Positions 1-50,377 of a stretch of DNA of 64,000 bases are shown here, one piece after another. A model generated the notes under the pieces. The model had not been told where the DNA came from. It saw only the letters and a program-made list of their open reading frames with translations, and ran no database searches. Positions within the stretch are counted from its first letter, which is position 1. Each line of letters opens with the position of its first letter. The position numbers and the translations under genes are program-made. The stretch is from an uncultured Clostridia bacterium (GTDB lineage: Bacteria; Bacillota_I; Bacilli_A; RF39; UBA660): assembly GCA_946409545.1 (NCBI GenBank), contig CAMJWT010000001.1:71483-135482 (forward strand). The letters are read 5' to 3'.

Positions 1-2
1 CA

Positions 3-221
3 ATTAAAGTTTTATCAGAATTTGCTAAAAATCATCCAGCTGTAGAATTAAAGGTAGGTATCGTTGATAAGGAAGTAACTGATAAGAATAAGTTAGCTGC
101 CCTTGCAACTATTCCTTCAAGAGAAGGATTACTTACAATGCTTGCTGGTGGTATGATTGGTATCGCAAGAGATTTATCAATCTGCTTAGATTTATATGCT
201 AAACAAAAAGAAGAAAATTAA
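3..221 (+). CDS. rplJ: 50S ribosomal protein L10, C-terminal part (5' end lies outside the window)
   Basis: Open frame 3 from the window edge to TAA at 219-221. Sits immediately upstream of rplL in the conserved L10-L7/L12 arrangement. The translated tail '...LAALATIPSREGLLTMLAGGMIGIARDL...' is L10-like. Confidence 0.7.
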   Translation: MKVLSEFAKNHPAVELKVGIVDKEVTDKNKLAALATIPSREGLLTMLAGGMIGIARDLSICLDLYAKQKEEN

Positions 222-239
222 TTAGAGGAGGAATTTAAA

Positions 240-617
240 ATGGCAAAATTAACAAGAGATGAATTTATTAGTTCATTAAAAGAAATGAGTTTATTAGAAA
301 TTAAAGAATTAGTTGATGCAATGAAAGAAGAATTTGGTGTAGATCCAAGTGCTGTAGCTGTTGCTGCTCCAGTTGCTGGTGGTAGTGATGCTAGTGCTGA
401 TGCTGCTCCAAGTGCAGTTACTGTAACATTAGTTAACGCTGGTGCTGCAAAAGTTAACGTTATCAAGGTTATTAAAGAAATTACTGGATTAGGATTAAAA
501 GAAAGTAAAGATATCGCTGATAACGGTGGTGCTGTTAAAGAAAATATTCCAGTTGCTGAAGCTGAAGAAATTAAAGCTAAATTAGAAGAAGCTGGCGCTG
601 AAGTAGAAGTAAAATAA
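240..617 (+). CDS. rplL: 50S ribosomal protein L7/L12
   Basis: 125 aa. Has the Ala/Val-rich flexible hinge and the conserved C-terminal domain 'KVIKEITGLGLKESKD...'. GGAGG RBS lies 7 nt upstream. Confidence 0.95.
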   Translation: MAKLTRDEFISSLKEMSLLEIKELVDAMKEEFGVDPSAVAVAAPVAGGSDASADAAPSAVTVTLVNAGAAKVNVIKVIKEITGLGLKESKDIADNGGAVKENIPVAEAEEIKAKLEEAGAEVEVK

Positions 618-633
618 TTGATAATAAACTTTT

Positions 634-663
634 AGATATAGAGAAATCTATATCTTTTTTTTT
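634..663 (+). terminator. rho-independent terminator after rplL
   Basis: Hairpin agatatag-(agaaat)-ctatatct followed by a T8 run. Confidence 0.5.
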
Positions 664-695
664 AGACATTTGTTATAATTACAATAGGTGATAAT

Positions 696-1247
696 ATGGA
701 TAATAAAAGAATAACAGAAGCAGAATTACAAGCGATAGATCCTACGTTTGTAGAAAGTAGTTTTATATCAAAAGTTGATAATATTTTTATAATGTTACAT
801 TCTTCTGTAATGTTAGGAAATTTAGAAAGAATTAAACATAAATTAAGTGATGAATTAATTAAAAGATATCAAAATTTAATTGATAATTTTAATGCAAATA
901 ATATAAGACAAATGTATGATGAATTAAATGTTAAATCAACAATGATAACTGGTATGTATGAAACAGAGAACGAATATATTATTGAGGTATTGTTAGTATC
1001 TAGATATATGGATTATTTAGTTAGAAAAGACAATAATCAATTTATTAGTGGTAATAATTCATATCGTACGGAAAAGAATAATTATCTAACTTTCTCTAAA
1101 AAGAAAAATGCAAAAGTAGAAGGTATGACAAGAAAATGTCCTGGTTGTAATGCAAATATTGATTCTAATAGCTCTGGTAAATGTCCATATTGTGGTACTT
1201 TCTATGATACTGTTAATTATGATTGGATTTTAAAGGATATAAGATGA
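696..1247 (+). CDS. Hypothetical protein with a putative Tim44/NTF2-like domain and a C-terminal CxxC...CxxC zinc ribbon. Paralog of 3997..4440.
   Basis: 183 aa. Ends 'CPGCNANIDSNSSGKCPYCGTFYD'. Shares 'MLxSxVMLGNLxRxKxKxSDxxxxxYQ..IDxFNxNNxRQMY...NYLTF' with the 3997 ORF. Confidence 0.4.
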   Translation: MDNKRITEAELQAIDPTFVESSFISKVDNIFIMLHSSVMLGNLERIKHKLSDELIKRYQNLIDNFNANNIRQMYDELNVKSTMITGMYETENEYIIEVLLVSRYMDYLVRKDNNQFISGNNSYRTEKNNYLTFSKKKNAKVEGMTRKCPGCNANIDSNSSGKCPYCGTFYDTVNYDWILKDIR

Positions 1248-2065
1248 AAAAAGATAATAAGAAAAGAATATTACTATTATCATTAATCTTAGGCTTATTT
1301 TTATTGTTTATTAATGTAAGAGCTGATTCAGGATATGATGTAGACTGGGGTGGAGGTGGCTCCGGCGGAGGCGGAGACATCAGTGGAATCTTTGATTTAA
1401 TCCTATTACTATTTAGAAATCCTATATTATTTATTATTGTTGTAATAATAATTGTTATTTTAGTGATTTATATGAATAAAAAAGATAAGACTTTACATAA
1501 TACAACTTCTATGGGATTAACTTTATTCACACATCGTCAAATTCCTTATGAACAAGTTAGTGCAATTCTAGGAAATATTGATATGAATGCCTTTATTAAT
1601 GATCGATTCAATGATTTTGTAGCGATTCAAAATGGATGGATGAATTTTAATCATGATTTGTTAAGAACTAAACTTACAGATGAATTATATAATCAATATG
1701 CTATTCAATTAGATACAATGCAAATTAAGAATCAACAAAATGTTATGAGTGACTTTAACTTATTCCAAGGTATGATTACAGGAATTATTCAAGAAGGAAA
1801 TAAAGTAACTTTAACAATGGAAATAATAACAGGATTCTTTGATTATTTAACCGAAAATGGACAAGTCGTAAGAGGAAAAAATGATCGAAAAGTAGTTGTT
1901 CATTATGAATTAACATTTGTATGCAATTTAGGAAGTAATGGCTTATGTCCAAACTGTGGAGCTAAGTTACCTGAAACGAATGTATGTGACTTCTGTCATT
2001 CTGTTGTTCCTAATGTTGGTACAGATTGGGTTATGTCTAAAAAAGAGACTTTAAAACAAAAATAA
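1244..2065 (+). CDS. Membrane protein with N-terminal TM helix, Gly-rich linker, Tim44-like domain and C-terminal zinc ribbon
   Basis: Start chosen at the ATG overlapping the upstream stop (ATGA), with AAGGA 8 nt upstream. Hydrophobic N-terminus, 'DWGGGGSGGGGD' linker, second TM, then 'CPNCGAKLPETNVCDFCHS'. The Gly-rich linker plus TM arrangement recalls bacterial Tim44-like (COG4395) proteins. Confidence 0.4.
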   Translation: MKKDNKKRILLLSLILGLFLLFINVRADSGYDVDWGGGGSGGGGDISGIFDLILLLFRNPILFIIVVIIIVILVIYMNKKDKTLHNTTSMGLTLFTHRQIPYEQVSAILGNIDMNAFINDRFNDFVAIQNGWMNFNHDLLRTKLTDELYNQYAIQLDTMQIKNQQNVMSDFNLFQGMITGIIQEGNKVTLTMEIITGFFDYLTENGQVVRGKNDRKVVVHYELTFVCNLGSNGLCPNCGAKLPETNVCDFCHSVVPNVGTDWVMSKKETLKQK

Positions 2066-2091
2066 CATTTACAATTCAGTTTTCTTCTAGT

Positions 2092-2757
2092 ATGATATTT
2101 CATATGAAGAAGAGACTGTTTTTTTTATTTATTTTTATAATAATATTAGTGTTTTTCCTTAATGGAATTATTGTAGGAACATCAAAAAATAGAATAATAA
2201 CTATTAATGAATTAAAGGATATCAAAGATATTGATGCTATTTTAGTATTAGGATGTAAAGTTAATCCAGGTGGTAATCCTTCTATGATGTTAGATAGAAG
2301 ATTAGAGAAGGGTATTGAAGTATATAAGACGATTGGCACAAAACTATTATTATCTGGTGATCACGGCCAGAAAGAATATGACGAAGTTAATACTATGAAA
2401 GAATATGTATTAAGTACGGATATCAATATTGATGATGTTTTCTTAGACCATGCTGGTTTTTCAACTTATGATAGTTTATATCGCGCTAAATATGTATTTG
2501 GTGTTAAAAAGATGGTTATTGTCACCCAAAGATATCACTTATTTAGGGCTCTTTATATTGCTAAATCCTTAGGAATAGAAGCTTATGGTATACCAGCCGA
2601 TAATATTCCTTATAGGTTTATAAATATTAAAAATGAAATAAGAGAAGTATTAGCAAGAGATAAAGATTTTTTCAAAGTAATAATTAAGCCAAAAAGCAAA
2701 TATTTAGGCGATAAAATTGATATTAAAGGAAGTGGAAGACTAACTTTTGATAAGTAG
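2092..2757 (+). CDS. SanA/YdcF (DUF218) family membrane protein
   Basis: N-terminal TM helix. Has 'DAILVLGCKV...PSMMLDRRLEKGIEVYK...LLLSGDHG...EYDEVNTMKEY', which fits DUF218/SanA. Start could also be the ATG at 2104; there is no clear SD for either. Confidence 0.5.
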   Translation: MIFHMKKRLFFLFIFIIILVFFLNGIIVGTSKNRIITINELKDIKDIDAILVLGCKVNPGGNPSMMLDRRLEKGIEVYKTIGTKLLLSGDHGQKEYDEVNTMKEYVLSTDINIDDVFLDHAGFSTYDSLYRAKYVFGVKKMVIVTQRYHLFRALYIAKSLGIEAYGIPADNIPYRFINIKNEIREVLARDKDFFKVIIKPKSKYLGDKIDIKGSGRLTFDK

Positions 2758-2816
2758 TCTTTTTTTTTATTTTTTTTTATGTTATAATAATTTTGATTTA
2801 AGATAGGAGGAAAAAA

Positions 2817-3941
2817 ATGGGATTAATTAAATCAGCAATTCAATCTATCAGTGGTGAACTTAGTGACCAATGGAAAGATTATATTACATGTGATGACATG
2901 GATATGAATACTTTAATGATTAAGAAGACAACTAAATCAGGTATCATATCTAAGAGTAGTGCAATTATGGTTGCGCCTGGCCAAATTGCCGTAATTTTTG
3001 ATTCAGGTAAAATTTTGGATGCAACAGCAGAAGAAGGAACTTATACTTTTGATGCTTCAACATCTCCATCATTCTTTGCAGGACAATTTGGAGCTGTATT
3101 TAAAGATTTATGGGCTCGTTTCACTTATAATGGAACAGTACCAAAACAACAAGCAGTATTCTATATTAATGCTAAAGAAATTTTGGATAATAAGTTTGGA
3201 ACACCTGCACCAGTTCCATTCCAAGATTATTCACATCCAATTCCAAATGAAATGACAGGAACTATTACACCTCTTCGTGTACAAGTTAAATGTTTCGGTA
3301 AATATACATATAAAATTACTGATCCAGCTGTATTCATGAGAGAATATGCAGGAACAGGTGATGTAGTTACTAAAGATGTTCTAAATGAACAAATGAGAAG
3401 TGAAGTTATTGCTTCATTCCAAAACGTATTAAATGAACTAGGAACAGAAGCTCATAAAGTTCCAGTTCTAGAACTTCCAAGTAGAACTGATGAAATCAAG
3501 ACTACAATGGATGAAAAAGTTTATGATGAACCAATTCGTAAACGTGGAATTCAAATTACAGGATTCGCTATTGAATCAGTAACATTAGATGATGAATCTA
3601 ATAAGAAGATTGATGAATACGAACACAATTCTAACGCTAGAATGCAACAAGGTCGTGTTCTTAACGTTATGGAAACTGCAGCAGGTAATGCTAATGGCGC
3701 AGGAGCAGGCTTTATGGGTCTAGGTATGATGAATATGGCTACTGGTGGAATGAACACTGCAGTTATGCAAAATGCTTTCACTCCACAACAACCAGCTGCT
3801 CAACCAGCAGCACCAGCTCCAGCAGCAGCACCAGGTGAAGCACCTGCAGCTCAAGGAGAAGTTGCTTTCTGTCCAAATTGTGGAACAAAATCAAGTGGCG
3901 GAAACTTCTGTACTAATTGCGGAACAAAATTACATGGTTAA
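2817..3941 (+). CDS. SPFH-like (COG4260/YdjI-type) protein with a C-terminal double zinc ribbon
   Basis: 374 aa. N-terminus 'MGLIKSAIQSISGELSDQWKDY', Ala/Pro/Gly-rich linker, then 'FCPNCGTKSSGGNFCTNCGTKLHG'. AGGAGG RBS. This architecture matches the family annotated as 'putative virion core protein'/YdjI, which is PspA-associated in B. subtilis. Confidence 0.5.
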   Translation: MGLIKSAIQSISGELSDQWKDYITCDDMDMNTLMIKKTTKSGIISKSSAIMVAPGQIAVIFDSGKILDATAEEGTYTFDASTSPSFFAGQFGAVFKDLWARFTYNGTVPKQQAVFYINAKEILDNKFGTPAPVPFQDYSHPIPNEMTGTITPLRVQVKCFGKYTYKITDPAVFMREYAGTGDVVTKDVLNEQMRSEVIASFQNVLNELGTEAHKVPVLELPSRTDEIKTTMDEKVYDEPIRKRGIQITGFAIESVTLDDESNKKIDEYEHNSNARMQQGRVLNVMETAAGNANGAGAGFMGLGMMNMATGGMNTAVMQNAFTPQQPAAQPAAPAPAAAPGEAPAAQGEVAFCPNCGTKSSGGNFCTNCGTKLHG

Positions 3942-3946
3942 TTAAT

Positions 3947-3972
3947 ATAGAAAGAGGTTTTCCTCTTTCTAT
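3947..3972 (+). terminator. rho-independent terminator
   Basis: Perfect 11-bp stem atagaaagagg/cctctttctat with a tttt loop. Confidence 0.5.
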
Positions 3973-3996
3973 ATCATTCTTTTAACGGGAGGATGT

Positions 3997-4440
3997 ATGA
4001 GCGTAGATGATTTAGTTAAAAAAGACTCTTCTTTTGGAATATCTAATTTTATTTCTGCAGCTAATAGCATGTATGTAATGTTACAATCTGCAGTCATGCT
4101 TGGCAACCTTTCACGCGTTAAAAGTAAAATTAGTGATAAAGTTTTACAAAAATATCAACATATTATTGACGAATTCAATAATAATAATCTTCGTCAAATG
4201 TATGAAGATATTAATATAAAAAAAACAGAAGTATTATCAATAACAAATAAAGATAATGATTATTACATTCAAGTATTAATCACTAGCTTAGCAAAAGATT
4301 ATGTTGTTGATAAAAAGAATTTAGAATATCGATATGGTGTTAATAATCAAAAGATTACGAAAAGTAATTATTTAACTTTTAGAAAAGATTATAATGATAT
4401 TAATAATCCATGGATTCTAGATGATATTTATACTAATTAA
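3997..4440 (+). CDS. Hypothetical protein, paralog of 696..1247 that lacks the zinc ribbon
   Basis: 147 aa. Contains 'MLQSAVMLGNLSRVKSKISDKVLQKYQHIIDEFNNNNLRQMYEDIN...NYLTFRK'. GGGAGG RBS. Confidence 0.4.
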   Translation: MSVDDLVKKDSSFGISNFISAANSMYVMLQSAVMLGNLSRVKSKISDKVLQKYQHIIDEFNNNNLRQMYEDINIKKTEVLSITNKDNDYYIQVLITSLAKDYVVDKKNLEYRYGVNNQKITKSNYLTFRKDYNDINNPWILDDIYTN

Positions 4441-4446
4441 AGAAAA

Positions 4447-4477
4447 TTATAAACATTTTTGTTTATAATTTTTTTTT
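4447..4477 (+). terminator. rho-independent terminator
   Basis: Stem ttataaaca/tgtttataa followed by a T9 run. Confidence 0.45.
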
Positions 4478-4520
4478 ATAAAAATATATGTTATAATATC
4501 TTGGATTTGTGGGTGATATT

Positions 4521-7328
4521 ATGGATAAAATAATCATTAAAGGAGCAAGAGAAAATAATTTAAAGAATATTAATCTTGAACTTCCTAAAAATAAATTAAT
4601 TGTAATGACAGGTCTATCTGGTAGTGGAAAGAGTAGTTTAGCTTTTGATACTATTTATGCTGAAGGCGAAAGACGTTATGTTGAAAGTCTTTCTAGTTAT
4701 GCTAGACAATTCTTAGGTGGAACTGAGAAACCTGATGTTGATAGTATTGAAGGGTTATCTCCAAGTATTAGTATTGATCAAAAAAGTACAAATAATAATC
4801 CAAGAAGTACTGTAGGTACAGTTACTGAAATATATGATTATTTAAGACTTTTATTTGCAAGAATTGGTGTTCCATATTGTCCTCGTCATAATAGACCTAT
4901 AACAAGTCAATCTGTTGAAGAAATTGTTAATAAAATATTAGAGTATCCAGAAGGAACTAAATTAGTTATTCTTTCACCAATTGTATATGATGAAAAAGGT
5001 ACTCATAAAGATTTATTTGATGATCTTCGTAAAGAAGGATTCATCAGGGTTAGAGTTAATGGTGAAATGTATGATTTATCAGAAGACATTAACTTAGAAA
5101 AGAATCTAAAAGATAAGATTGATATTGTTATTGATCGTATTGTTATTAAAGAGAATATTAGGACAAGATTATTTGAATCAATTGAACTAGCTACTAATAA
5201 ATCAAATGGTAAAGTAGTAGTTGATATTGTAGGTGATAAAGAAGTATTATTTTCTACTAAATATGCGTGTCCAGAATGTGATTATTCACTACCTGAACTT
5301 GAACCTCGTATCTTTAGTTTTAATAGTCCATATGGGGCTTGTCCAGAATGTAAAGGTTTAGGAACTAAATTAAAAATGGATCCTGATCTTGTTATTCCAA
5401 ATAAGGATAAAAGTTTAAATGAGAATTGTATTCAAACATTATCAGACGATAAAGAAAGTATTGATTATAAAAAGTTAGAGATTGTTTGTAAGCATTATCG
5501 TATTGATATGAATAAACCATTTAAGAAGTTATCCAAAGATAAACAAGATATTATTTTATATGGTTCTAATGAATTAATTGATTTTAAGATTACAACTAAA
5601 AGTGGTAATGTTAATAAAAGTACGACTTTCTATGAAGGTGTTATTAACAATCTAGAACGTCGTTATATGGAAACATCTTCTGAATGGATTCGTGATTGGT
5701 TATCTAACTATATGATTGAACTTGAGTGTCCCGTATGTCATGGAGCAAGACTTTCAGATGCGATTCTTAATATTTTCATTAATAAGAAAAATATTTATGA
5801 TATTACGTTAATGTCTATTTCAGAATTACTTGATTGGTTTAAAAATATAAAATTATCAGATTATCAAAAAGATATCGCTGGTTTATTAATTCAAGAGATT
5901 GTTAATCGATTAACTTTTTTAAATAATGTTGGATTATCTTATTTAACATTATCAAGACAAGCAGGTACTTTATCTGGTGGTGAAAGTCAAAGAATTAGAT
6001 TAGCTACCCAAATTGGATCAAGATTAACTGGTGTACTTTATGTACTTGATGAACCAAGTATTGGTCTTCATCAAAAAGATAATCAAAAATTAATTAATTC
6101 TCTTCTTGAGATGCGTGATTTAGGTAATACTTTAATTGTTGTTGAACATGATAGTGATACAATGCTTGCTAGTGATTACTTAGTAGATATAGGACCAGGT
6201 GCTGGTGATGATGGTGGTTACGTTGTAGCTTGTGGAACACCTTCTGAAGTTATGGCAAACCCTAATAGTATTACCGGACAGTATTTATCTGGTAAATTAA
6301 TGATTGATGTTCCTAAGAAACGTAGAAAAGGTAATGGTAAATATTTAGAAGTTTTTGGTGCTAAAGCAAATAACCTAAAAAATATTGATGTTAAATTTCC
6401 TCTTGGTAAATTTGTTTGTGTTACCGGTGTATCAGGAAGTGGTAAGAGTAGTTTAGTTAATGAAATACTTATGAAAGAAATTAGTAGTAAGTTATATAAA
6501 TCTAAAGAGAAACCGCTTGCTTTTGATAAGATTAAAGGTATTGATAATATTGATAAATTAGTCTTTATTAGTCAAAATCCTATTGGTAGAACTCCACGTA
6601 GTAATCCAGCTACCTACACTGGTGTATTTGATGATATTCGTGACTTATATGCAAGTACAAAAGAAGCGAAAGCTTTAGGCTATGGAAAGAATAGATTCTC
6701 TTTCAATGTTAAAGGTGGACGTTGTGAAGCTTGTTGGGGAGATGGTGTTAAAAGAATTGAAATGCACTTTTTGCCAGATGTTTATGTACCTTGTGAAGTA
6801 TGTCATGGAACAAGATATAATAGTGAAACACTAAGTATTAAGTATAAAGATAAAAATATTGCGGATGTTCTTGATATGAGAGTTACTGAAGCTTTGAAAT
6901 TTTTTGAAAATATACCTAAGATTAAACATAAGTTACAAACAATGGAAGACGTTGGTTTAGGTTATGTTAAACTTGGTCAATCAGCAACAACTCTATCTGG
7001 TGGTGAAGCTGGCCGTGTAAAATTATCTAAAGAACTTCAAAAAAAGCCAACAGGTAAGAGTTTATTCATTCTTGATGAACCAACAACAGGACTTCATACT
7101 GATGATATTAAGAGATTACTTGTTATCTTACAAAGAATCGTTGATAATGGGGATACGGTTATTGTTATTGAACATAACCTAGATGTTATTAAAGTATCAG
7201 ATTATATTATCGACTTAGGTCCTGATGGTGGTAATATGGGAGGAACTGTTGTAGCTTGTGGTACTCCTGAAGAAATTGCTAAAGTTAAAAATAGTTATAC
7301 AGGCGAATTTTTGTCTAAAATGTTGTAA
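4521..7328 (+). CDS. uvrA: Excinuclease ABC subunit A
   Basis: Two ABC ATPase modules ('GLSGSGKSS', 'GVSGSGKSS', 'LSGGE...') and zinc-finger Cys pairs. I prefer the ATG at 4521 over the upstream GTG at 4509. Confidence 0.95.
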   Translation: MDKIIIKGARENNLKNINLELPKNKLIVMTGLSGSGKSSLAFDTIYAEGERRYVESLSSYARQFLGGTEKPDVDSIEGLSPSISIDQKSTNNNPRSTVGTVTEIYDYLRLLFARIGVPYCPRHNRPITSQSVEEIVNKILEYPEGTKLVILSPIVYDEKGTHKDLFDDLRKEGFIRVRVNGEMYDLSEDINLEKNLKDKIDIVIDRIVIKENIRTRLFESIELATNKSNGKVVVDIVGDKEVLFSTKYACPECDYSLPELEPRIFSFNSPYGACPECKGLGTKLKMDPDLVIPNKDKSLNENCIQTLSDDKESIDYKKLEIVCKHYRIDMNKPFKKLSKDKQDIILYGSNELIDFKITTKSGNVNKSTTFYEGVINNLERRYMETSSEWIRDWLSNYMIELECPVCHGARLSDAILNIFINKKNIYDITLMSISELLDWFKNIKLSDYQKDIAGLLIQEIVNRLTFLNNVGLSYLTLSRQAGTLSGGESQRIRLATQIGSRLTGVLYVLDEPSIGLHQKDNQKLINSLLEMRDLGNTLIVVEHDSDTMLASDYLVDIGPGAGDDGGYVVACGTPSEVMANPNSITGQYLSGKLMIDVPKKRRKGNGKYLEVFGAKANNLKNIDVKFPLGKFVCVTGVSGSGKSSLVNEILMKEISSKLYKSKEKPLAFDKIKGIDNIDKLVFISQNPIGRTPRSNPATYTGVFDDIRDLYASTKEAKALGYGKNRFSFNVKGGRCEACWGDGVKRIEMHFLPDVYVPCEVCHGTRYNSETLSIKYKDKNIADVLDMRVTEALKFFENIPKIKHKLQTMEDVGLGYVKLGQSATTLSGGEAGRVKLSKELQKKPTGKSLFILDEPTTGLHTDDIKRLLVILQRIVDNGDTVIVIEHNLDVIKVSDYIIDLGPDGGNMGGTVVACGTPEEIAKVKNSYTGEFLSKML

Positions 7329-7353
7329 AGTTCTCATTTGAGAACTTTTTTTG
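7329..7353 (+). terminator. rho-independent terminator after uvrA
   Basis: agttct-(catttg)-agaact followed by T7. Confidence 0.5.
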
Positions 7354-7403
7354 TTTATTCTCTTTTATTCAATGTGATATTCTTATATTGTAGGAGAATA
7401 GAA

Positions 7404-7577
7404 ATGGATGAAAAGATTAATGAAGCTTCAGGAGAAATAAAAAAATATTTTGATAATTTACCTTTGATAGATGAAAAGGATATTAAAGACTTTAATTTTT
7501 TTGAGTCATGTTTGTATCTTGAAAAATTAAATTTATTAGATAGTTTAACAAGTAGAGAAGGTGAAGATAATGAGTGA
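7404..7577 (+). CDS. Small hypothetical protein (57 aa)
   Basis: AGGAGA RBS lies 6 nt upstream of the ATG. TGA stop overlaps the start of the next ORF. Confidence 0.3.
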   Translation: MDEKINEASGEIKKYFDNLPLIDEKDIKDFNFFESCLYLEKLNLLDSLTSREGEDNE

Positions 7578-9780
7578 AGTAGTTGCTATTAATTATCCCG
7601 CTTTTAATACAAGAGTTAAAACTAATAAAAGACAAGTTATTAAGCAGTTAGAGAAAAAAGTTGAAGAAGGAAAACTAGATATGTTAAAAGCATCATTAAG
7701 AGAGAAAAGTATTACTTTTAATGATGAAATAACTGATTATTATCAATTTGTTGATTCTCTTCAAAGTTTAACAGGACCAGATTTAATAATTGCCAATAAA
7801 TTAGTTAATAACATAAATCGTGAAGTTGATCGTATGATTTTATCATTAAAAGATGGTTCAACTAGTGCTTTTACTAAGTTTTTACAAACAGTTAATGATA
7901 AAGTATTAAGTCCTGTTGGAAATGTTGTTACGAATTCTCTTGCGATGAATACTGTTCTTAGTTTAATACCATCAATTCCTGTTAAAATGGGTGTTTCTAT
8001 TTTGTTAACAGGTATGTCTTTAACTAATATTTATAAGGTTGATAAGTATAAAATGGTTACCAATCGAACTTATGAATTAGATAAAGTATTACAAGAATTA
8101 GAAACAACAATTGATAAAGATGGTAATATTATCGATACTAGATTTAGTGAAAATGATCAAACCATTATTCGAAGTTTTTTAAAAACGAATAATGTTATAT
8201 ATGAAGATACAGGATATCTTTCTTTAAGAGAAGCGGTTTATAGTTTATCAGTTGAACAAAAAGAAGAATTATGTCGAAAACTTGATATGAATAAAGAGCA
8301 AGAGGAGCGAATTGAAAAATTAAACGATAATCTATTTACAAGAATAAGAAAAAAAGTTATAACTCCTATTGCTGTTGCTACAACCGGAGGAGTAGGTTTA
8401 GCAACGTCTATTAATTCTATTGATCCAACCCTTTTAGCAGCCCCTCTTAATGGTACACTAGTAGGAACAATTGTATCAAAATTAACCGAAAGTAAAGTAA
8501 TTGGATGGGTATCAGGAGCTATTACAGGATGCTTAAACTTTGTTGGTAAGTTTATACCTGCTATAAGTAGTTTAGTTAATAAAGTATCAGCTATAGAAAA
8601 CGTTGCAGTTCTTGCTGTAGCTGGAGCAGGTGTAGGTCTATTAGGTGTAATAGGTAAAGGCATCTATAATGCGATAAAGAATAGGAAGAATATCTTTAAT
8701 ACGCAAAAACTTCAAAAGAAATTGGCAGATAAAGATCAAGAACTATATGGAGAAAAAGATATTGAAGAAATAAGTAGAATGCGTGAGATTCTAAAAGAAA
8801 GATCTCATAAAGAAGAAACCTTTATCATTAGTATCGTATGTCAATATATGAATGAAATAGGTGTTGAATATGAAAAAGCGCCTCATAATTTACAAGAACT
8901 ACAAGAATTAATAAATGGTTTATCAAATAAAGAGAAGAGACAAATTAGAAAATTATTTGAATCATTAGAAGAATTTTTACATAGAGAACCAAATAAATTT
9001 AAAAGGTGTATGAAAAAAGCTGGTAAATTTATTAAAACGGTTGTAACTTTAGGTCTTGCTGGAATGAGTGTTACTAATATTCTTACAAGTGGTGGATTCT
9101 TTGCAATGATTAAAGAAAAGTTATTTGGTGTAGAACCGGTAGTAAAACCAGAATATTTATCGTTTGATGATTCAAAAGGAAGAGCAGCTTATGAAAGTGA
9201 ATATGGTGAGGTTATTAATGAAGTAGTAGAAACACCGATGGCAAACCCAGAACCTCAACCAGGACCTGCCCCAGTAACACCAACCCCAACGCCTACTCCA
9301 ACACCGACACCAGGTCCATCAGTAAATATGACACCAGAAACTCCAGTAACGACACCTAAACCAAAATATGTTTGTGGAAGATTACCAAAGTTAAATTATA
9401 ATTTACAGGATGTTTGCTTGGGAACAACTAACGTTGACTTATCTTCACTTCCTGATGATGAATTGTTATCATTAATTGTTAATTCACCTGATTATCGATA
9501 TACAGCACATATTTTAGAGGTAATGGATAAGGATACTTTCTTAAGATTTAAGACTTTAATTGAAAACAGTCCTAAAATAAATCGTAATGGTTGTTTAAGT
9601 TATCAATGGGTAAAAGATTGTTTGAATGCTCGAATAAATACTGAAAATCAAGTTATTAAAAATGCTATTGATGCTTATAATGCTAAAGTAAATTTAGATG
9701 ATATAACTAACAAGGTTGGTACAGGTATTGGTATAGCAGCCGCTATAACTGAAGAAGAAAAACAAGTTAAAACAAGATAA
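7570..9780 (+). CDS. Large hypothetical membrane protein with Gly-rich amphipathic/TM segments, a Pro-Thr linker and a Cys-containing C-terminal domain
   Basis: Roughly 736 aa from the ATG at 7570. Has several hydrophobic Gly-rich stretches ('AVATTGGVGLATSI', 'AVLAVAGAGVGLLGVIGKG'). Has a 'PTPTPTPTPTPGP' linker and a C-terminal domain carrying CGRLP...C...C...C. Confidence 0.5.
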   Translation: MSEVVAINYPAFNTRVKTNKRQVIKQLEKKVEEGKLDMLKASLREKSITFNDEITDYYQFVDSLQSLTGPDLIIANKLVNNINREVDRMILSLKDGSTSAFTKFLQTVNDKVLSPVGNVVTNSLAMNTVLSLIPSIPVKMGVSILLTGMSLTNIYKVDKYKMVTNRTYELDKVLQELETTIDKDGNIIDTRFSENDQTIIRSFLKTNNVIYEDTGYLSLREAVYSLSVEQKEELCRKLDMNKEQEERIEKLNDNLFTRIRKKVITPIAVATTGGVGLATSINSIDPTLLAAPLNGTLVGTIVSKLTESKVIGWVSGAITGCLNFVGKFIPAISSLVNKVSAIENVAVLAVAGAGVGLLGVIGKGIYNAIKNRKNIFNTQKLQKKLADKDQELYGEKDIEEISRMREILKERSHKEETFIISIVCQYMNEIGVEYEKAPHNLQELQELINGLSNKEKRQIRKLFESLEEFLHREPNKFKRCMKKAGKFIKTVVTLGLAGMSVTNILTSGGFFAMIKEKLFGVEPVVKPEYLSFDDSKGRAAYESEYGEVINEVVETPMANPEPQPGPAPVTPTPTPTPTPTPGPSVNMTPETPVTTPKPKYVCGRLPKLNYNLQDVCLGTTNVDLSSLPDDELLSLIVNSPDYRYTAHILEVMDKDTFLRFKTLIENSPKINRNGCLSYQWVKDCLNARINTENQVIKNAIDAYNAKVNLDDITNKVGTGIGIAAAITEEEKQVKTR

Positions 9781-9804
9781 GACTTATTTAATAAGTCTTT
9801 TTTG
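9781..9804 (+). terminator. rho-independent terminator
   Basis: gacttatt-ta-aataagtc followed by T6. Confidence 0.5.
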
Positions 9805-9855
9805 TTGGAAAAATAAAGCTTTTGTTATATAATACGAAAGTGAAGTGGTGATATT

Positions 9856-16807: not shown

Positions 16808-17377
16808 TTAAAAACTAATTGATGCACTATTTGTTACATATGTTGCAAAATCAGCATCTGTTTTAATACTAAATGTTTGAGTAGATGTTGAAGGTGTATC
16901 ACCTAAATTATATCCAGTTACTCTTGTAGGATCTGCTGTATCACCATATACAGCAGTATATGTTCTAACTTCTTTTTTATAAGTTATTGTTGGATATCCT
17001 TCACCATCAACATTAGTTTCTGTTACAAAGTATTTAATTTGTTTAGTTGTATTATCATCTTCAATTTTACAAGGTGTATCAGATACTTTACTTGCTGCAT
17101 CTCTAGCCCAACCATCAAATTTTTGAGCTTTTGCAATCATATCATCATATTTTGCTTGCATTTTATCAAGTAAATCTGTTGATTTATCATTAATAGTAGT
17201 AATCATTGCAAGCCAACTATCTCTTGTTTCAGCGATAGATGAAAGATCACTATCATCGATTATTTTTTTATAAGTATCACTTATTGTTTTTATTGTTGTA
17301 TCAATATTTAATTTAGCTTCTTCAAGTGGCCTTTTAAAATTTGTTACAACTAATTCTTCATATGAAATTCTTGCCAT
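16808..17377 (-). CDS. Hypothetical protein with a helical N-terminal half and Thr/Tyr-rich C-terminal half
   Basis: 189 aa. Second gene of a minus-strand operon with 17387..18661 (10-nt spacing, GGAGG RBS). Confidence 0.45.
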   Translation of the reverse strand: MARISYEELVVTNFKRPLEEAKLNIDTTIKTISDTYKKIIDDSDLSSIAETRDSWLAMITTINDKSTDLLDKMQAKYDDMIAKAQKFDGWARDAASKVSDTPCKIEDDNTTKQIKYFVTETNVDGEGYPTITYKKEVRTYTAVYGDTADPTRVTGYNLGDTPSTSTQTFSIKTDADFATYVTNSASISF

Positions 17378-17386
17378 AACTACCTC

Positions 17387-18661
17387 CTAAAATTCTACCC
17401 ATTGTTCTTCAGGAGAACCTTCTTCAGAAATCTTAGCACTTGTAATATTTCCGTCTTCATCTGATTTATAATCATAAATATTATATTCTCCTTCAGGAAG
17501 AGCTTCTTCATCGGCTACACTATCACCGTTTTCTTGTTTTTTCTTAACGTAGATAGTTGCTCCTAAACCAACAACTAGAACACCTAGGACACCACCAAGA
17601 ATCTTATTCTTGCTGCTACTAATTGTAACTTTTGATCCGTTACCTAAGTCAACATTTTGTGGATTAGTAAATGTGTAACCATATTGTTCAAATGTTCCGC
17701 CATCAATATACTTACCATCTTTATAGATTTGAATCCATTGTTCAGGTTCGCCATCTTTACTAATTCTAATTGCTGTAACATTTGAATTAGAATCAGAAGC
17801 GATAGCGTAAACTTTATATTTACCTGGCTCTAATTGTCCAATTAAATTATTATCTTTATCATAAATAGGAATACCACCACTAGTACAATCGAATGATCCT
17901 ACTTGGTTAGTTTCATAATAAGAACCTACTGGCACACCATCTTGAACAACTCTAATCCATTGTTCAGGTTCTGTTCCATCAGGACTTACCCTAACAGCGA
18001 TAACATTTCCATTTCCATCTTTTAGTTCTTCATAAACTTTATATTGACTTGTTGTTGCTGTTCCCGTTGGATTACCGTTTTCATCAGTAATAATTGTTCC
18101 ATCTTTTGTTACTGTTAATGTTCCTAAACCATTATTTGTTGTTGGGTCAGTAGAATCTGTATTGAATTGATCAATTAAAGAATCAACTGTTGGTGTAACT
18201 GCTACAACTACTTCTTCGTCTTCAGTTGGATTTTCATCAGTTGGCTCTTCCTCGGTTGGAGTCTCATCTGTTGGTTCTTCTTCAGTAGGAGTTTCTGGAT
18301 CTGGTGTCCAATCATCTCCACCGCTCCAGTTGTTATTTCCACGTGGACGACGACTTTCTTCCTCTTCTTCTTCACCATCTTCATCGGTCATAATGATTCC
18401 TTCAAAGACTTGGGCCATTTCCATACCTATTTTGTTAATGCATCCAGCGATTGTTTGATCTGACTCATCTCCAGGTTCACCACACCATTCTTTAGCATCA
18501 AATTTATCACCAATTATTTCTTTAGGCTTAACTTCTACAATTTGTTCATCTGTATTATATTTGTTTATTCTCTCAAAAGCATCAGTTCTTTGTTTTAAAT
18601 TGGCATTTAATATTGTTAGTACATCTGTATCGATTGTTAACATTTCATCACCTATCCTCAT
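17387..18661 (-). CDS. Repeat protein lacking a signal peptide and anchored by one C-terminal TM helix, with an acidic cytoplasmic tail. Paralogous in architecture to 21684..24254.
   Basis: Has an 'EEEEEES...TEEEPTDETPTEEEPTDENPTEDEE' acidic linker. Has repeats 'NVIAVRVSPDGTEPEQWIRV' and 'NVTAIRISKDGEPEQWIQI'. Has the TM helix 'ILGGVLGVLVVGLGATIYV' followed by KKK. The tail 'EGEYNIYDYKSDEDGNITSAKISEEGSPEEQWVEF' repeats the motif. Confidence 0.5.
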   Translation of the reverse strand: MRIGDEMLTIDTDVLTILNANLKQRTDAFERINKYNTDEQIVEVKPKEIIGDKFDAKEWCGEPGDESDQTIAGCINKIGMEMAQVFEGIIMTDEDGEEEEEESRRPRGNNNWSGGDDWTPDPETPTEEEPTDETPTEEEPTDENPTEDEEVVVAVTPTVDSLIDQFNTDSTDPTTNNGLGTLTVTKDGTIITDENGNPTGTATTSQYKVYEELKDGNGNVIAVRVSPDGTEPEQWIRVVQDGVPVGSYYETNQVGSFDCTSGGIPIYDKDNNLIGQLEPGKYKVYAIASDSNSNVTAIRISKDGEPEQWIQIYKDGKYIDGGTFEQYGYTFTNPQNVDLGNGSKVTISSSKNKILGGVLGVLVVGLGATIYVKKKQENGDSVADEEALPEGEYNIYDYKSDEDGNITSAKISEEGSPEEQWVEF

Positions 18662-43127: not shown

Positions 43128-46100
43128 ATGGCTTATAAGCTAGTTAATTGTGGCGATTATCGTCAAAGAAGATCCTTCTCAAGGATAAAGAAAAGTTATG
43201 AATTAAAAGATTTACTTGAAATTCAAAAAAAGAGTTATCAATGGTTTGTTGATACAGGTATAAAAGAAGTATTTGATGACTTGTTCCCCGTAGAAAATTT
43301 CTCTGGAACTCTATCATTAGAATTTGGTGATTATCATTTTGATGAACCAAGATATTCAATTAAAGAAAGTAAGGATAGAGAGTCTACTTATGCAGCTCCA
43401 CTTAAGATTGATGTTAGATTATTTAATCATGAAACCGGTGAAGTAAAAGAACAAGAAATATTCTTAGGTGATATGCCAGTAATGACGGATAGTGGTACTT
43501 TCATTATCAATGGTGCAGAACGTGTAATTGTATCTCAATTAGTAAGAAGTCCAAGTGTATACTTTAATCGTGAAATTGATAAGAGTGGTAGAAGTTTAAT
43601 TACATCACAAATTATTCCAACACGTGGTACATGGTTAGAATTCGAAACTGATGCTAGAGATGTTGTATATGTTCGTATTGATAGAACAAGAAAAGTAGCT
43701 TTAACTACCCTTTTACGTGCTTTTGGTTTATCTAGTGACGAAGATATTTACAAAGTCTTTGGTAAAGATCCATATATTGAAAATACAATAGCTAAAGATA
43801 GTACAAGAAATACTGATGAAGCTTTAATTGAAATATATGAAAAATTAAGACCAGGAGAACCTAGTACACTTGATAGTTCTAAAAACCAAATTATTACAAG
43901 ATTCTTTGATGAATTCCGTTATGATTTAGCCCGTGTAGGACGTTATAAATTTAATAGAAAGTTAAATGTAACAGATAGATTATTAAATCAAACTTTAGCA
44001 GAAGATATTAAAGTTGATAATGAAGTTAAATTTGCTAAAGATACATTAATTACAAAAGATGTCTTAGAAGAAATGAAGACTATCTTTAATAGTGGTTATA
44101 ATTTAAAACCAGCTAAGATTAATGAAGAATTAGATACTTATGGAAATATTCAAACAATTAAGATTTATAATCCTAATGATAAGAAAGAAAAATTAATTGT
44201 AATCGGTAATGATTATAATATAGATGTTAAGAGATTAACTATTAGTGATGTTTATGCATCAGTAAGTTATTACTTAAACTTATTACATGGTGTTGGTAAC
44301 TTCGATGAAATTGACCATTTAGGTAATCGTCGTATTAGACAAGTAGGAGAATTATTACAAAATCAATTTAGAATTGGTGTAGCTCGTATGGAAAGAGTTA
44401 TTCGTGAACGTATGACTACTCAAGAAATGGATGAAGTAACTCCTAAAACATTAATTAATATAAGACCAGTTACAGCTGCTATGAAAGAGTTCTTTGGTTC
44501 ATCACAACTTTCACAATTCATGGATCAAACGAACCCACTTGCAGAATTAACTAATAAACGTCGTCTATCTGCTTTAGGTCCAGGTGGATTATCAAGAGAT
44601 AGAGCTGGTGTTGAAGTACGTGACGTTAACCCTTCACATTATGGACGTATTTGTCCTATTGAATCACCAGAAGGACAAAATATTGGTCTTATTACTTCAC
44701 TTGCTAGTTACGCTAAAATTGATGAATATGGATTTATTATGACTCCATATCGTAAGGTTGAAAATAAGAAATTAACTGATGAAGTTGTTTATTTAACAGC
44801 CGATGAAGAACAAGATTATGTTATTTCACAAGCTACTATTGAAGTAGATGATAAATTTAATATTGTACCTGAAAAAGTAACAGCTCGTTATAAAGGTGAA
44901 AATATTATTACTAAATCAGAAGATGTTGATTATGTCGATGTATCACCACAACAAGTAGTTGCTGTAACAACAAGTTGTATTCCATTCCTAGAACACGATG
45001 ATGCAACTCGTGCTTTGATGGGTGCAAACATGCAACGTCAATCAGTACCATTACTTAGAAGTGAAGCTCCATTTGTTGGAACAGGTGTAGAATATGCAGC
45101 TGCTCGTGACTCTGGTGCTGTAGTTCTTGCTAAAGCAGATGGTGTTGTTGATTATGTTGATGCTAAGAAGATTGTTATTAAAAATGCTAAGGGACAAGAT
45201 GTTTATTATATGTCTAACTATGAGTTATCAAACTCTGGTTCTATTTCACATCAACGTCCAATTGTTCATGTAGGTGATAAGATTAAACGTGGTCAAACAA
45301 TTGCTGATGGACCAAGTACTAATCAAGGTGAACTTGCCCTAGGTAAGAATATGGTTGTTGCCTTCATGACATTTAATGGTTATAACTATGAAGATGCCGT
45401 TGTATTAAATGAAAATTTAGTTAAAGACGATGTATTCACATCACTTTATCTAGAAGATTATCAAATGCAATGTCGTGATACCAAATTAGGTCCTGAAGAG
45501 ATTACTCGTGATATTCCAAATGTTAGTGAAGAATCTCGTAAGAACTTAGACGAAAATGGTATTGTAATGATTGGTACAGAAGTACATGAAGGTGATATCT
45601 TAGTTGGTAAAGTAACTCCAAAAGGTATGGCTGAACTTACTTCAGAAGAAAAATTATTACATGCTATCTTCGGTGAAAAAACAAGAGAAGTTCGTGATAC
45701 ATCACTTCGTGTTCCACATGGTGGCGATGGTATTGTTCACGATGTTAAGATATATAGTAGAAAAGATAATGATGAATTACCAGCTGGTGTTTCTAAAGTT
45801 ATTAGAATTTATATAATTCAAAAACGTAAGATTCAAGTTGGTGATAAGATGTCTGGTCGTCATGGTAATAAAGGTGTTATTTCACTTATTCTTCCACAAG
45901 AAGATATGCCATTCTTACCAGATGGTCGTCCAGTTGATGTAATGTTAAACCCAATGGGTGTTCCATCACGTATGAATATTGGACAAATCCTAGAACTTCA
46001 TTTAGGTATGGCTGCTAAGAAATTAGGAGTTTACTGTGCTACACCAGTATTTGATGGTGCAACAATAGATGATGTTCATGAAATGATGGCTGAAGCTCAT

Positions 46101-46727
46101 ATGGAACCAGATGGAAAGACTGTTTTATATAATGGTCGTACTGGTGAACCATTTGATAATCGTGTATCAGTTGGTGTTATGTATATGATTAAACTACACC
46201 ACATGGTAGATGATAAACTTCATGCAAGAAGTACAGGTCCTTATTCATTAGTAACTCAACAACCACTTGGAGGTAAAGCTCAATTTGGTGGTCAAAGATT
46301 TGGTGAGATGGAAGTTTGGGCTCTATATGCTTATGGAGCTGCTCATACATTACAAGAAATCTTAACTGTTAAGTCTGATGATGTAATTGGTCGTGTTAAA
46401 GTATATGAATCAATTATTAAAGGACAAGATGTTAATAGAGCTGGTGTTCCAGAATCATTTAGAGTTCTTATGAAAGAATTCCAAGCTTTAGGCTTAGACT
46501 TAAAGATTGTTAATGATGATGGTGAAATACTAGATCTTAAAGAAATTGAAGAAGATGAGGATAAAGAAGATATTAATCCAAATCTTGATGAGGTTGAATT
46601 AAATCCTGTTGTCAAAGATGTTGAACCAGATGATGACTGGGAAGAAGAATCAGAATTTGATGATGAGGATAGTTTAGATGATATCGATGATGAAGATATT
46701 GATTTAGATGAAGGAGGGGAATTCTAA
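43128..46727 (+). CDS. rpoB: DNA-directed RNA polymerase subunit beta, with a ~90-aa acidic C-terminal extension
   Basis: N-terminus '[16 protein letters not shown]...SYQWFVD'. 1199 aa. C-terminus '[22 protein letters not shown]...[12 protein letters not shown]'. Confidence 0.97.
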
Positions 46728-49700: not shown

Positions 49701-50377
49701 TCACTGAAGATCATGGTAAGTTCAAGATCGTTGTTGAAAATAAATTAGAGACAAAAGAACATGTAACTAACTATGGATCTAAACTTCGTGTAGAAAAAGG
49801 TGATATGGTTGTTCCTGGTGATAAATTAACTGAAGGTGCTATTAGCCCTAAAGAATTATTAACCGTAACTGACCCACTTACTACACAAGAATATATCTTA
49901 AAAGAAGTACAAAACGCTTATCGTAGTCAAGGTGTTGAAATTTCTGATAAACACGTTGAAGTTATCGCTAAACGTATGATTGATAAGATTAGAGTTGTTG
50001 ATGGTGGAGACACATATTTACTTCCTGGTTCTCTTGTTAACTTCCATGAATTTACTGATGGAAATAAGAAGATTATCATTGAAGGTAAACGTCCTGCTAC
50101 TGGTGTACCAGTTCTATTTGGTATTACTAAAGCATCTCTTGGAACTGATTCCTTCTTATCAGCTGCTTCTTTCCAAGAAACAACACGTATCTTAACAGAT
50201 GCAGCTATTCGTGGTAAGACTGATAATTTAGTTGGTCTTAAAGAAAATGTTATCGTTGGTAAACTTATCCCTGCAGGAACTGGTATTAAAGCTTATCAAA
50301 AAGTTGATTATGATCTAGCTAACCAATTCGCAGAAGATGAACCAATGGAAGCACTTGAAAACGAATTTATGGAATAA
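46727..50377 (+). CDS. rpoC: DNA-directed RNA polymerase subunit beta'
   Basis: Zn-finger '[23 protein letters not shown]' and catalytic '[12 protein letters not shown]'. 1216 aa. Confidence 0.97.

Follow-up and report, generated by a model that had tools for sequence, protein, structure and literature searches.

A translationally coupled gene pair of uncultured Bacilli encodes a polytopic membrane protein and a small acidic protein from two undescribed, co-inherited families

The gene pair and its expression signals

The subject of this report is a pair of overlapping genes from an uncultured bacterium of the GTDB lineage Bacilli_A, RF39, UBA660 (assembly GCA_946409545.1, contig CAMJWT010000001.1), lying on a stretch of 64,000 nucleotides (nt) that was analysed as a whole and is referred to as the window (positions 71,483 to 135,482 of the contig). 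The pair occupies positions 7404..9780 of the window, between uvrA and lgt, and comprises an open reading frame (ORF) of 57 amino acids (aa) followed by one encoding a membrane protein of 736 aa, all on the plus strand, as are the other features described here unless stated otherwise. Both ORFs had been singled out in an earlier note made by reading the letters of this DNA; they are present as it described, and the two hydrophobic peptides that it quoted fall at aa 268-302 and 346-364 of the large protein.

The small ORF (7404..7577; ATG at 7404, TGA at 7577) is preceded by a Shine-Dalgarno (SD) sequence AGGAGA at 7392..7397, with AGGAG or AGGTG equivalents upstream of its relatives. The large ORF (7570..9780) is taken to begin at the ATG at 7570, since its homologues start with MSE or MND, rather than at the GTG at 7561 from which mechanical ORF calling yields 739 aa. 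The two frames overlap by 8 nt (ATGAGTGA), such that the large-gene ATG lies within the last codons of the small ORF. The junction for translational coupling (7560..7577) combines an SD sequence GGTGA at 7560-7564 with the ATG at 7570, both embedded in the codons for G-E-D-N-E-stop. The same GGTGA...ATGAnTGA layout is seen at the related loci L002, L004, L007 and L008, and variants of it at L009 (GGTAG) and L011 (stop codon TAG); the 8-nt overlap is kept at most loci, with the genes adjacent instead of overlapping in L014 and L019. The conserved G-D/E-x-N-E tail of the small protein is thus accounted for by the translation signals of the large gene that its codons carry: GGTGA(T/A) constitutes the SD sequence and AATGA supplies the ATG. 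Hence, the suggestion of a coupled pair in the earlier note is borne out. Further, the ratio of non-synonymous to synonymous substitution rates (dN/dS) relative to homologues amounts to 0.18-0.38 in the large gene and 0.07-0.47 in the small one, which establishes both as real genes under purifying selection.

The claim that the pair is an independent transcription unit between its neighbors likewise holds, with a terminator on each side. The upstream one, the intrinsic terminator of uvrA (7327..7355; 9-bp stem, 4-nt loop and U run), was detected by a consensus scan; RNA folding of its hairpin (7327-7348) with the U run gives -9.8 kcal/mol (z -3.9), a stability equaled by 0 of 200 shuffled sequences, and the hairpin is conserved in L002 and L004. 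It separates the pair from transcription upstream. The 75-nt spacer between uvrA and the small ORF contains, in addition to the AGGAGA, a promoter-like extended -10 box TGTGATATT at 7373..7381, which was read directly in the sequence and has no good -35 element. This box was not among the sites listed by the sigma-70 scan; a TGTGATA is equally far from the start codon in both L002 and L004, and L021 has a box resembling it, making this a candidate promoter for the pair. Downstream of the large ORF lies a second intrinsic terminator (9779..9804; 9-bp A/U-rich stem and U6), the weaker of the two: the hairpin at 9779-9799 with its U6 folds at -7.1 kcal/mol (z -2.4), a stability that 8 of 200 shuffles reach, and the consensus scan missed it because its stem has only two G-C pairs.

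Distribution, variants and neighborhoods of the two families

The earlier note regarded the large protein as an orphan, a view that the searches overturn. A word-indexed protein search recovered 11 close homologues of 98-31% identity, and its alignment-based repeat returned the same 11 proteins. A profile search of 1.84 billion cluster representatives yielded 149 matches with E<=1e-3, 104 of them with E<=1e-10 and 75 with E<=1e-30; the true family comprises roughly 125 representatives, as the weakest two dozen or so matches cover the Pro/Thr-rich linker alone. The sole name attached to the family representatives in the cluster look-up is "hypothetical protein". A scan of metagenomes added 8 further loci, 7 of them with proteins 50-99% identical to that of the window; such pattern-based locus scans under-sample distant relatives. 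The broad alignments are too divergent for pattern scans. The relatives come from metagenome assemblies and metagenome-assembled genomes of uncultured Bacilli. The small protein belongs to a family of its own with 88 members of 37-107 aa, all but a few of them 50-65 aa long, all unannotated and, in the case of the window protein, devoid of a Pfam match. It is acidic (16 Asp plus Glu versus 7 Lys plus Arg) and carries a helix with the conserved motif F-[YF]-E-x-[CA]-L-Y-L-E-K-L-N-x-L-D, in which Y38, L42 and N43 are invariant.

The pair was found at about 16 loci in at least eight different neighborhoods: the window, L002-L006, L007, L008, L009/L010, L011, L012, L013, L014, L017, L018, L019, L021-L023 and L030. 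Its setting between uvrA and lgt-whiA is shared by the window and L001-L006, and this synteny holds for homologues of 57-98% identity. In another clade the pair lies between PFOR and recG (L013 and L021-L023; in L015 the large gene has the same neighbors and no small ORF), in L007 between an FNT transporter gene and one for a DUF2935 protein, and in L017 between murD and the murG region. The recurrence of the two genes across such differing surroundings implies that they travel together and form a functional unit, and their settings are as expected of a resident, vertically inherited gene at core-genome positions.

The small ORF does not accompany every form of the large gene. Scored where the large gene encodes the N-terminal helical domain and upstream DNA exists, it is present at 15 of 16 loci, the exception being L015; it is absent at three genes from two loci (L016 and L020) that lack this domain. 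From this co-occurrence, in what is a small sample, we infer a joint role for the 57-aa protein and the N-terminal domain; the small protein most likely binds that cytoplasmic part of the large one, of which it is the presumed cytoplasmic partner. The genes without either element are the N-terminally shorter one of L016 and those of a short subfamily of 260-440 aa, which retains a central alpha/beta domain and two membrane helices (TMa and TMd below) joined by a polar loop whose length varies; its alignment with the window protein spans aa 148-417 (hhalign E 3e-47). Two tandem short-subfamily paralogues, of 274 aa and at least 355 aa, occupy L020 1355..3266, with the signature domain and the membrane hairpin and no small ORF. 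At L013 (5989..7947) the large gene is split into ORFs of 77 and 569 aa; this split and the missing small ORF of L015 could each be either an assembly error or real decay.

Several diverged members lie near genes of cell division or the cell wall. In L017 the order is murD, the pair and, further on, murG-murB-ftsQ; in L008 the pair is 4.4 kb upstream of mraZ-rsmH-ftsL; in L016 rsmD and a ylbD-like gene flank it, and sepF and divIVA are 4-5 kb away; L007 has ylmH and a Mur ligase gene nearby, and L018 and L021-L023 have polysaccharide deacetylase or YkuD genes. We treat these associations as a lead only. L017 also carries, at 1..8441, genes of a conjugative type IV secretion system (T4SS; TraC-like, VirB4-like, peptidase C39-like and a VirD4-type coupling protein) just upstream of the Mur ligase gene taken as murD and of the pair; they are probably an integrated element unrelated to it.

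In the window, whose GC content is low throughout (~22-40% per 500 nt), the pair follows uvrA (4509..7328) and is followed by lgt, which has a sigma-70-like promoter of its own at 9805-9833 (sigma-70 scan), whiA, a GNAT gene, a uridine-kinase-like gene, gap, ftsE and ftsX; uvrA, lgt and whiA were identified via NCBIfam equivalogs. The window shares in the lead from division and wall genes, with lgt and whiA adjoining the pair and ftsEX 5.4 kb downstream of it. In relatives a conserved ORF of 52-54 aa without a Pfam match lies between gap and ftsE (L001 17328..17486, L005 10375..10539); the equivalent position in the window is after 14916. Upstream of uvrA there is a cluster (696..4440) of three Tim44-like domain proteins (696..1247, 1223..2065 and 3997..4440), a SanA/DUF218 protein (2092..2757) and an SPFH/Band-7 protein (2817..3941) whose linker is Ala/Pro-rich and whose C-terminus holds a zinc ribbon. 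The same arrangement recurs in L001, L002 and L004, and the cluster may be a membrane-microdomain module. Directly upstream of the syntenic block in L001 and L002 are secE-nusG and the L11-L1-L10-L12 ribosomal protein genes, regions where leader RNAs are usual; the whole 64-kb window has no Rfam family at gathering score and no tRNA. Two minus-strand ORFs at 16808..18661 break the otherwise all-plus-strand block, and the GC skew is locally negative at 17001-18500.

Architecture, topology and predicted structure of the large protein

The large protein is organized around five hydrophobic helices, a further hydrophobic stretch and four folded domains. It opens with a cytoplasmic helical hairpin (aa 1-112, 7570..7905; helices 9-45 and 57-94), somewhat shorter than the soluble N-terminus of ~130 aa given in the earlier note. 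The conserved turn motif L93-x2-G-S97-T-x-A-F-x-K-F leads from it into the first hydrophobic helix. A membrane hairpin follows (aa 116-155, 7915..8034), in which the transmembrane (TM) helices TM1 (aa 116-133) and TM2 (aa 138-155) are joined by a 4-residue outer turn, PSIP, whose P134 is kept in more than 90% of members. Next comes the signature of the family, a cytoplasmic alpha/beta domain (aa 156-262, 8035..8355) with the motif ELxxILxELExTKDxxGxIIDTRF...DTGYLSLRxxIYxL, which is its most conserved and best-modelled part. We entertained an aspartic-protease reading of the 'DTG' therein and rejected it: the motif starts a helix in a small alpha/beta domain, and no protease fold was matched.

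The Gly/Ala-rich membrane region (aa 263-366, 8356..8667) is delimited by TMa (aa 263-283, with G274xxxA278) and TMd (aa 344-366, with G352xxxG356). Between these helices lies a conserved, moderately hydrophobic stretch of 60 aa (284-343) with the motifs IDP, NG, IPxxG and AxEN. Conserved polar residues (N282, D285, P286, N294, E343 and N344) cap the hydrophobic block, and the segment as a whole has the lowest dN/dS in the gene, 0.057 relative to L002. The glycine-zipper likeness pointed out in the earlier note is real: the sequence at aa 291-320 contains three strict [GAS]xxxGxxxG motifs, and 42 of 61 members have a zipper motif in this region. The amphipathic character that it ascribed to the Gly-rich helices does not stand, and we discarded the idea of amphipathic pore helices: TM1, TM2, TMa, TMd and the last helix, TMe, have low hydrophobic moments (0.06-0.20), as is typical of TM helices, and only aa 309-343 are moderately amphipathic (0.37-0.40). 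The Gly-rich helices do behave as those of an ordinary polytopic protein, and they match no transporter family. A 141-aa ORF from the mechanical list lies antisense to the region (8238..8663, minus strand) and is probably a by-product of codon composition.

The second half begins with a basic cytoplasmic helical domain (aa 367-489, 8668..9036; charge +6, with KR-rich ends), into which TMd continues as a single long helix to about aa 411. TMe (aa 490-514, 9037..9111; GLAGLSxxDI...GxF) is preceded by 15 residues holding seven Lys or Arg and followed, in the window protein, by an acidic segment. This segment and a Pro/Thr-rich stalk make up the extracytoplasmic aa 515-600 (9112..9369); the PT linker itself is at aa 559-582, the stalk core at aa 559-598, and the DNA encoding the linker harbors no tandem repeat. 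Of the 61 members, 16 have a Pro-rich stretch (Pro fraction >=0.3 over 30 aa). Local GC content peaks at 9001..9500 (0.36) and at 3501..4000 (0.40) against ~0.27, coinciding with this linker and with the Pro/Ala linker of the SPFH protein, respectively; the peaks reflect composition and not foreign DNA. The protein ends with a helical ectodomain (aa 601-714, 9370..9711; defined from the predicted structure and profile homology) and a short Gly-rich hydrophobic tail (VGTGIGIAAAIT) with a charged end and the stop codon (aa 715-736, 9712..9780). The C-terminal domain is better put at ~135-150 aa than at the ~170 of the earlier note. Its four cysteines exist (602, 616, 675 and 684) and are not conserved, being lost even in a 70%-identical homologue (P0003), on which account we discarded the idea of a disulfide-bonded Cys domain.

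What follows the last TM helix is variable within the family, ranging from 9 to 934 aa. Most members of 700-780 aa share the helical C-domain (profile coverage extends to position ~737); in P0049 and P0023 unrelated repeats replace the C-terminal region, and distant members of 850-1030 aa end in a further Gly-rich TM helix and a basic tail, where the window protein has aa 715-736. Two elements define the families at the sequence level: an ELExTKDxxGxIIDTRF...DTGYLSLR domain flanked by Gly-rich TM helices with GxxxA/GxxxG, and a 50-65-aa acidic upstream partner, overlapping or abutting, with the motif F-x-E-x-x-x-Y-x-x-x-L-N.

Topology was assessed from hydropathy and from counts of Lys plus Arg (K+R) in the 15 residues flanking each helix across the 61 members. 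The cytoplasmic side has the K+R excess in 53 of 61 members at TM1, 60 at TM2, 61 at TMa and 60 at TMd; such one-sidedness marks a constitutive membrane protein of fixed topology, N-terminus in and C-terminus out. The predicted arrangement would place the N-terminus, aa 156-262 and aa 367-489 in the cytoplasm, and the turn at 134-137, the 284-343 stretch and everything after aa 514 outside; if aa 284-343 formed two more spans, the sidedness elsewhere would be the same. The Pro/Thr linker fits an outside location of the C-terminal region, and the tail domain is probably displayed towards the wall. A distant member, P0091 (~19% identity), which keeps a 53-aa upstream partner, has a GH25/endolysin-type domain after its last TM helix (Pfam 1.8e-5, 25.6 bits against a cut-off of 27; PHROG endolysin family 2.5e-8). 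A muramidase must face the cell wall, so the position of this domain agrees with the C-out topology.

An AlphaFold2 (AF2) model, one of the checks proposed in the earlier note, had a mean predicted local distance difference test score (pLDDT) of 55 with 12 sequences and of 69 with 61 sequences, the latter with a predicted TM-score (pTM) of 0.39. In the 61-sequence model four domains are confident, with 10-residue block means of 72-87 over aa 11-100, 81-93 over aa 161-250, 72-90 over aa 371-470 and 81-96 over aa 601-700, and the Gly-rich block is at ~35. The segment with the Pro/Thr stalk (aa 515-600) comes out disordered. Continuous helices at 136-178, 255-281, 330-411 and 474-505 link membrane and cytoplasm, the last of these running into TMe. 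The low score of the block (aa 266-365) would fit a need for partners or oligomerization and proves nothing. The model has no significant Foldseek match in PDB (best E 0.77) or in BFVD (best E 0.33), and profile searches of PDB sequences with the full family and the short subfamily returned nothing relevant.

The earlier note found the domain organization unlike that of any known protein, and we concur, as no described family matches it. For both proteins and the 61 members, Pfam, NCBIfam, PHROGs and PADLOC gave sub-threshold noise only (Spore_III_AB, RTX, crAss_THB and ATP synthase c), and no PADLOC defense-system model was matched. The Spore_III_AB (PF09548) match is a weak one over aa 140-257 (E 0.008, 16.6 bits against a cut-off of 32.5), found in 2 of 61 members. 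As in the SpoIIIAB/GspF-type platforms, a cytoplasmic helical domain of ~100 aa is bracketed by TM helices; unlike those systems, the large gene has no secretion ATPase or spoIIIA operon near it, and no locus of the family contains spoIIIA genes. No profile or fold of a transporter or channel family was matched. Hence, with every test for a known family negative, the pair represents two undescribed co-inherited families that are new at the family and fold level. Such newness does not attest to a new mechanism, and hypothetical membrane proteins that are conserved are nothing unusual.

A possible envelope complex and its rivals

We tentatively propose, at a confidence somewhat short of even, that the pair forms a resident envelope complex that links a state or partner in the cytoplasm to a module facing the wall, acting as a tether or regulator rather than a toxin. 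The two-gene operon, with a candidate promoter and a terminator of its own, would produce a complex that resides in the membrane of its own producer. The TM1/TM2 hairpin, the Gly-rich TMa...TMd block and the last TM helix would put three folded domains in the cytoplasm, namely the N-terminal hairpin, the alpha/beta domain and the basic helical domain, each apparently joined rigidly to a membrane helix. The small-xxx-small and glycine-zipper helices might pack the membrane part, probably as an oligomer, and outside, the helical domain would be held on the Pro/Thr stalk so as to face the cell wall; across the family this module is exchangeable, a GH25 domain taking its place in one distant member. 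The 57-aa protein, made by coupled translation, would then most likely bind the N-terminal cytoplasmic domain, and the assembled complex may serve the envelope or cell division as a tether or regulator, much as MapZ, RodZ or RsgI do.

The closest parallels are Streptococcus pneumoniae MapZ (LocZ) and, at a greater remove, RodZ and the anti-sigma factors RsgI, in which a cytoplasmic part is joined to a wall-facing ectodomain via a flexible linker, as it would be here. The position of several family members close to division and wall genes is a further point in common. MapZ has a cytoplasmic N-terminal part, a membrane anchor and a small folded ectodomain that sits on a flexible, low-complexity linker (PMC4931243), Ser-rich in MapZ and Pro/Thr-rich in the large protein. 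However, MapZ, RodZ and RsgI have a single TM helix, as against five to seven membrane segments and three cytoplasmic domains in the multi-pass large protein; none of their domains matches it, there is no similarity in sequence or fold, and the obligatory 57-aa partner is peculiar to the pair. The likeness is an analogy of logic and not a case of membership.

Several points weigh against this proposal. There is no domain of known function in either protein, and the role is deduced from architecture and a loose genomic context; the association with division and wall genes was made post hoc, without a control set, and the small ORF is the only constant neighbor. On the structural side, the K+R bias is weaker at TMe (33 versus 10 of 61), the hydrophobicity of TM1 and TM2 is only marginal, and the pLDDT of aa 266-365 together with the low pTM means that the membrane core was not modelled as a monomer. 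Finally, the GH25 evidence comes from one distant member at ~19% identity. A more elaborate version would see in the pair a lineage-specific envelope machine, with an oligomeric zipper core controlled by the alpha/beta domain and the 57-aa partner and positioning or regulating the wall-facing module, whose ectodomain gave way to a muramidase in one branch. It would be a new kind of landmark or regulator for division or the cell wall, in the role that MapZ, EzrA or FtsEX-type systems have elsewhere; this we consider decidedly unlikely.

The main rival to the envelope-complex proposal is a homo-oligomeric channel or conduit that resides in the producer's own membrane, likened to mechanosensitive, ion or export channels, with the zipper stretch (aa 284-343) and the GxxxG helices lining a pore gated by the cytoplasmic domains and the small protein. 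We think it unlikely. The very features that make the Gly-rich region stand out can be read in its favor: the three strict zipper motifs and their recurrence among members, the conserved polar caps, the lowest dN/dS of the gene and the failure of the AF2 monomer to fold the region, as expected if an oligomer is needed. ATP synthase subunit c gives a sub-threshold NCBIfam match over aa 321-371 (E 0.44), which points the same way, though it shows a c-ring-like composition only. Set against these, the short subfamily has the polar loop of variable length in place of the zipper stretch, indicating that the zipper is not part of the minimal core of the family; the channel reading further lacks a channel or transporter match by family or fold and leaves the large, variable, stalked ectodomain unexplained.

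The pore-forming or holin-like character that the earlier note read into the zippers fares worse. On this reading the large protein would damage membranes as a toxin, a bacteriocin or an effector of the holin type, such as the LXG-type TelE and TspA of type VII secretion (T7SS), with the small protein as chaperone or targeting partner. There is a superficial likeness to the LXG toxins of T7SSb in the helical N-terminal hairpin with its conserved L-x-x-G turn, the small upstream helical protein and the glycine-zipper helices; LXG toxins do have small partner proteins (PMC10434224, PMC10801868), and one member, P0044, has a sub-threshold match to the RTX N-terminal domain (E 0.008). However, no LXG (PF04740), WXG100 or toxin Pfam model matches, even at E<=1 for the window protein and E<=0.1 for the 61 members, nor does any LXG, WXG, bacteriocin, holin or tape-measure profile. 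In TelE-type toxins the essential zipper is C-terminal and the gene stands next to T7SS and immunity genes (PMC10434224), whereas here the zipper is central (aa 291-320) within a polytopic topology. The 64-kb window has no EssC-sized ORF, its only ORFs above 1000 aa being an unscanned pair of 1199 and 1216 aa at 43128..50377, and no phage, lysis or T7SS genes were found at any family locus examined. The downstream gene varies by locus (lgt, DUF2935, recG or a MurJ-like gene), leaving no conserved immunity gene. Holins are proteins of ~60-220 aa with one to four TM helices, encoded in a lysis cassette next to an endolysin; at 736 aa the large protein far exceeds that size, and neither a lysis cassette nor phage genes lie nearby. 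Added to the fixed positive-inside topology of the 61 members and the syntenic, vertically inherited core-genome position, this renders the toxin or holin reading very unlikely.

Lastly, that the protein is a domesticated tape-measure or ejection protein from a phage or conjugative element is scarcely tenable: the loose likeness in architecture (long helices, hydrophobic segments rich in Gly and at times a muralytic C-terminus, here the endolysin-type GH25 of P0091), the cyanophage pre-ejectosome and tape-measure proteins among the top Foldseek matches (none significant; E >= 0.33, TM-score < 0.12), the crAss_THB match of one member (1.3e-4) and the T4SS genes 1.5-9 kb upstream in L017 are outweighed by the want of any relative among 50,697 phage and 72,556 plasmid records (tblastn) or in IMG/VR, of any significant PHROG match to the core (only phrog_7694, of unknown function, at E 0.0097), of any phage or tail-module genes at any locus, and by a positive-inside topology that bespeaks a resident membrane protein.

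The pair is conserved across a set of uncultured, small-genome Bacilli that abound in metagenomes of the gut and rumen and whose cell-wall and division machinery has largely been deduced from model organisms. At a minimum, the pair adds two new co-inherited families, one of a ~730-aa membrane protein and one of its ~55-aa partner, with a signature, a topology and a testable partner interaction, both absent from current libraries. If the coupling of a cytoplasmic partner to a wall-facing module proves true, it would constitute an undescribed component of the cell wall or division apparatus of these bacteria.

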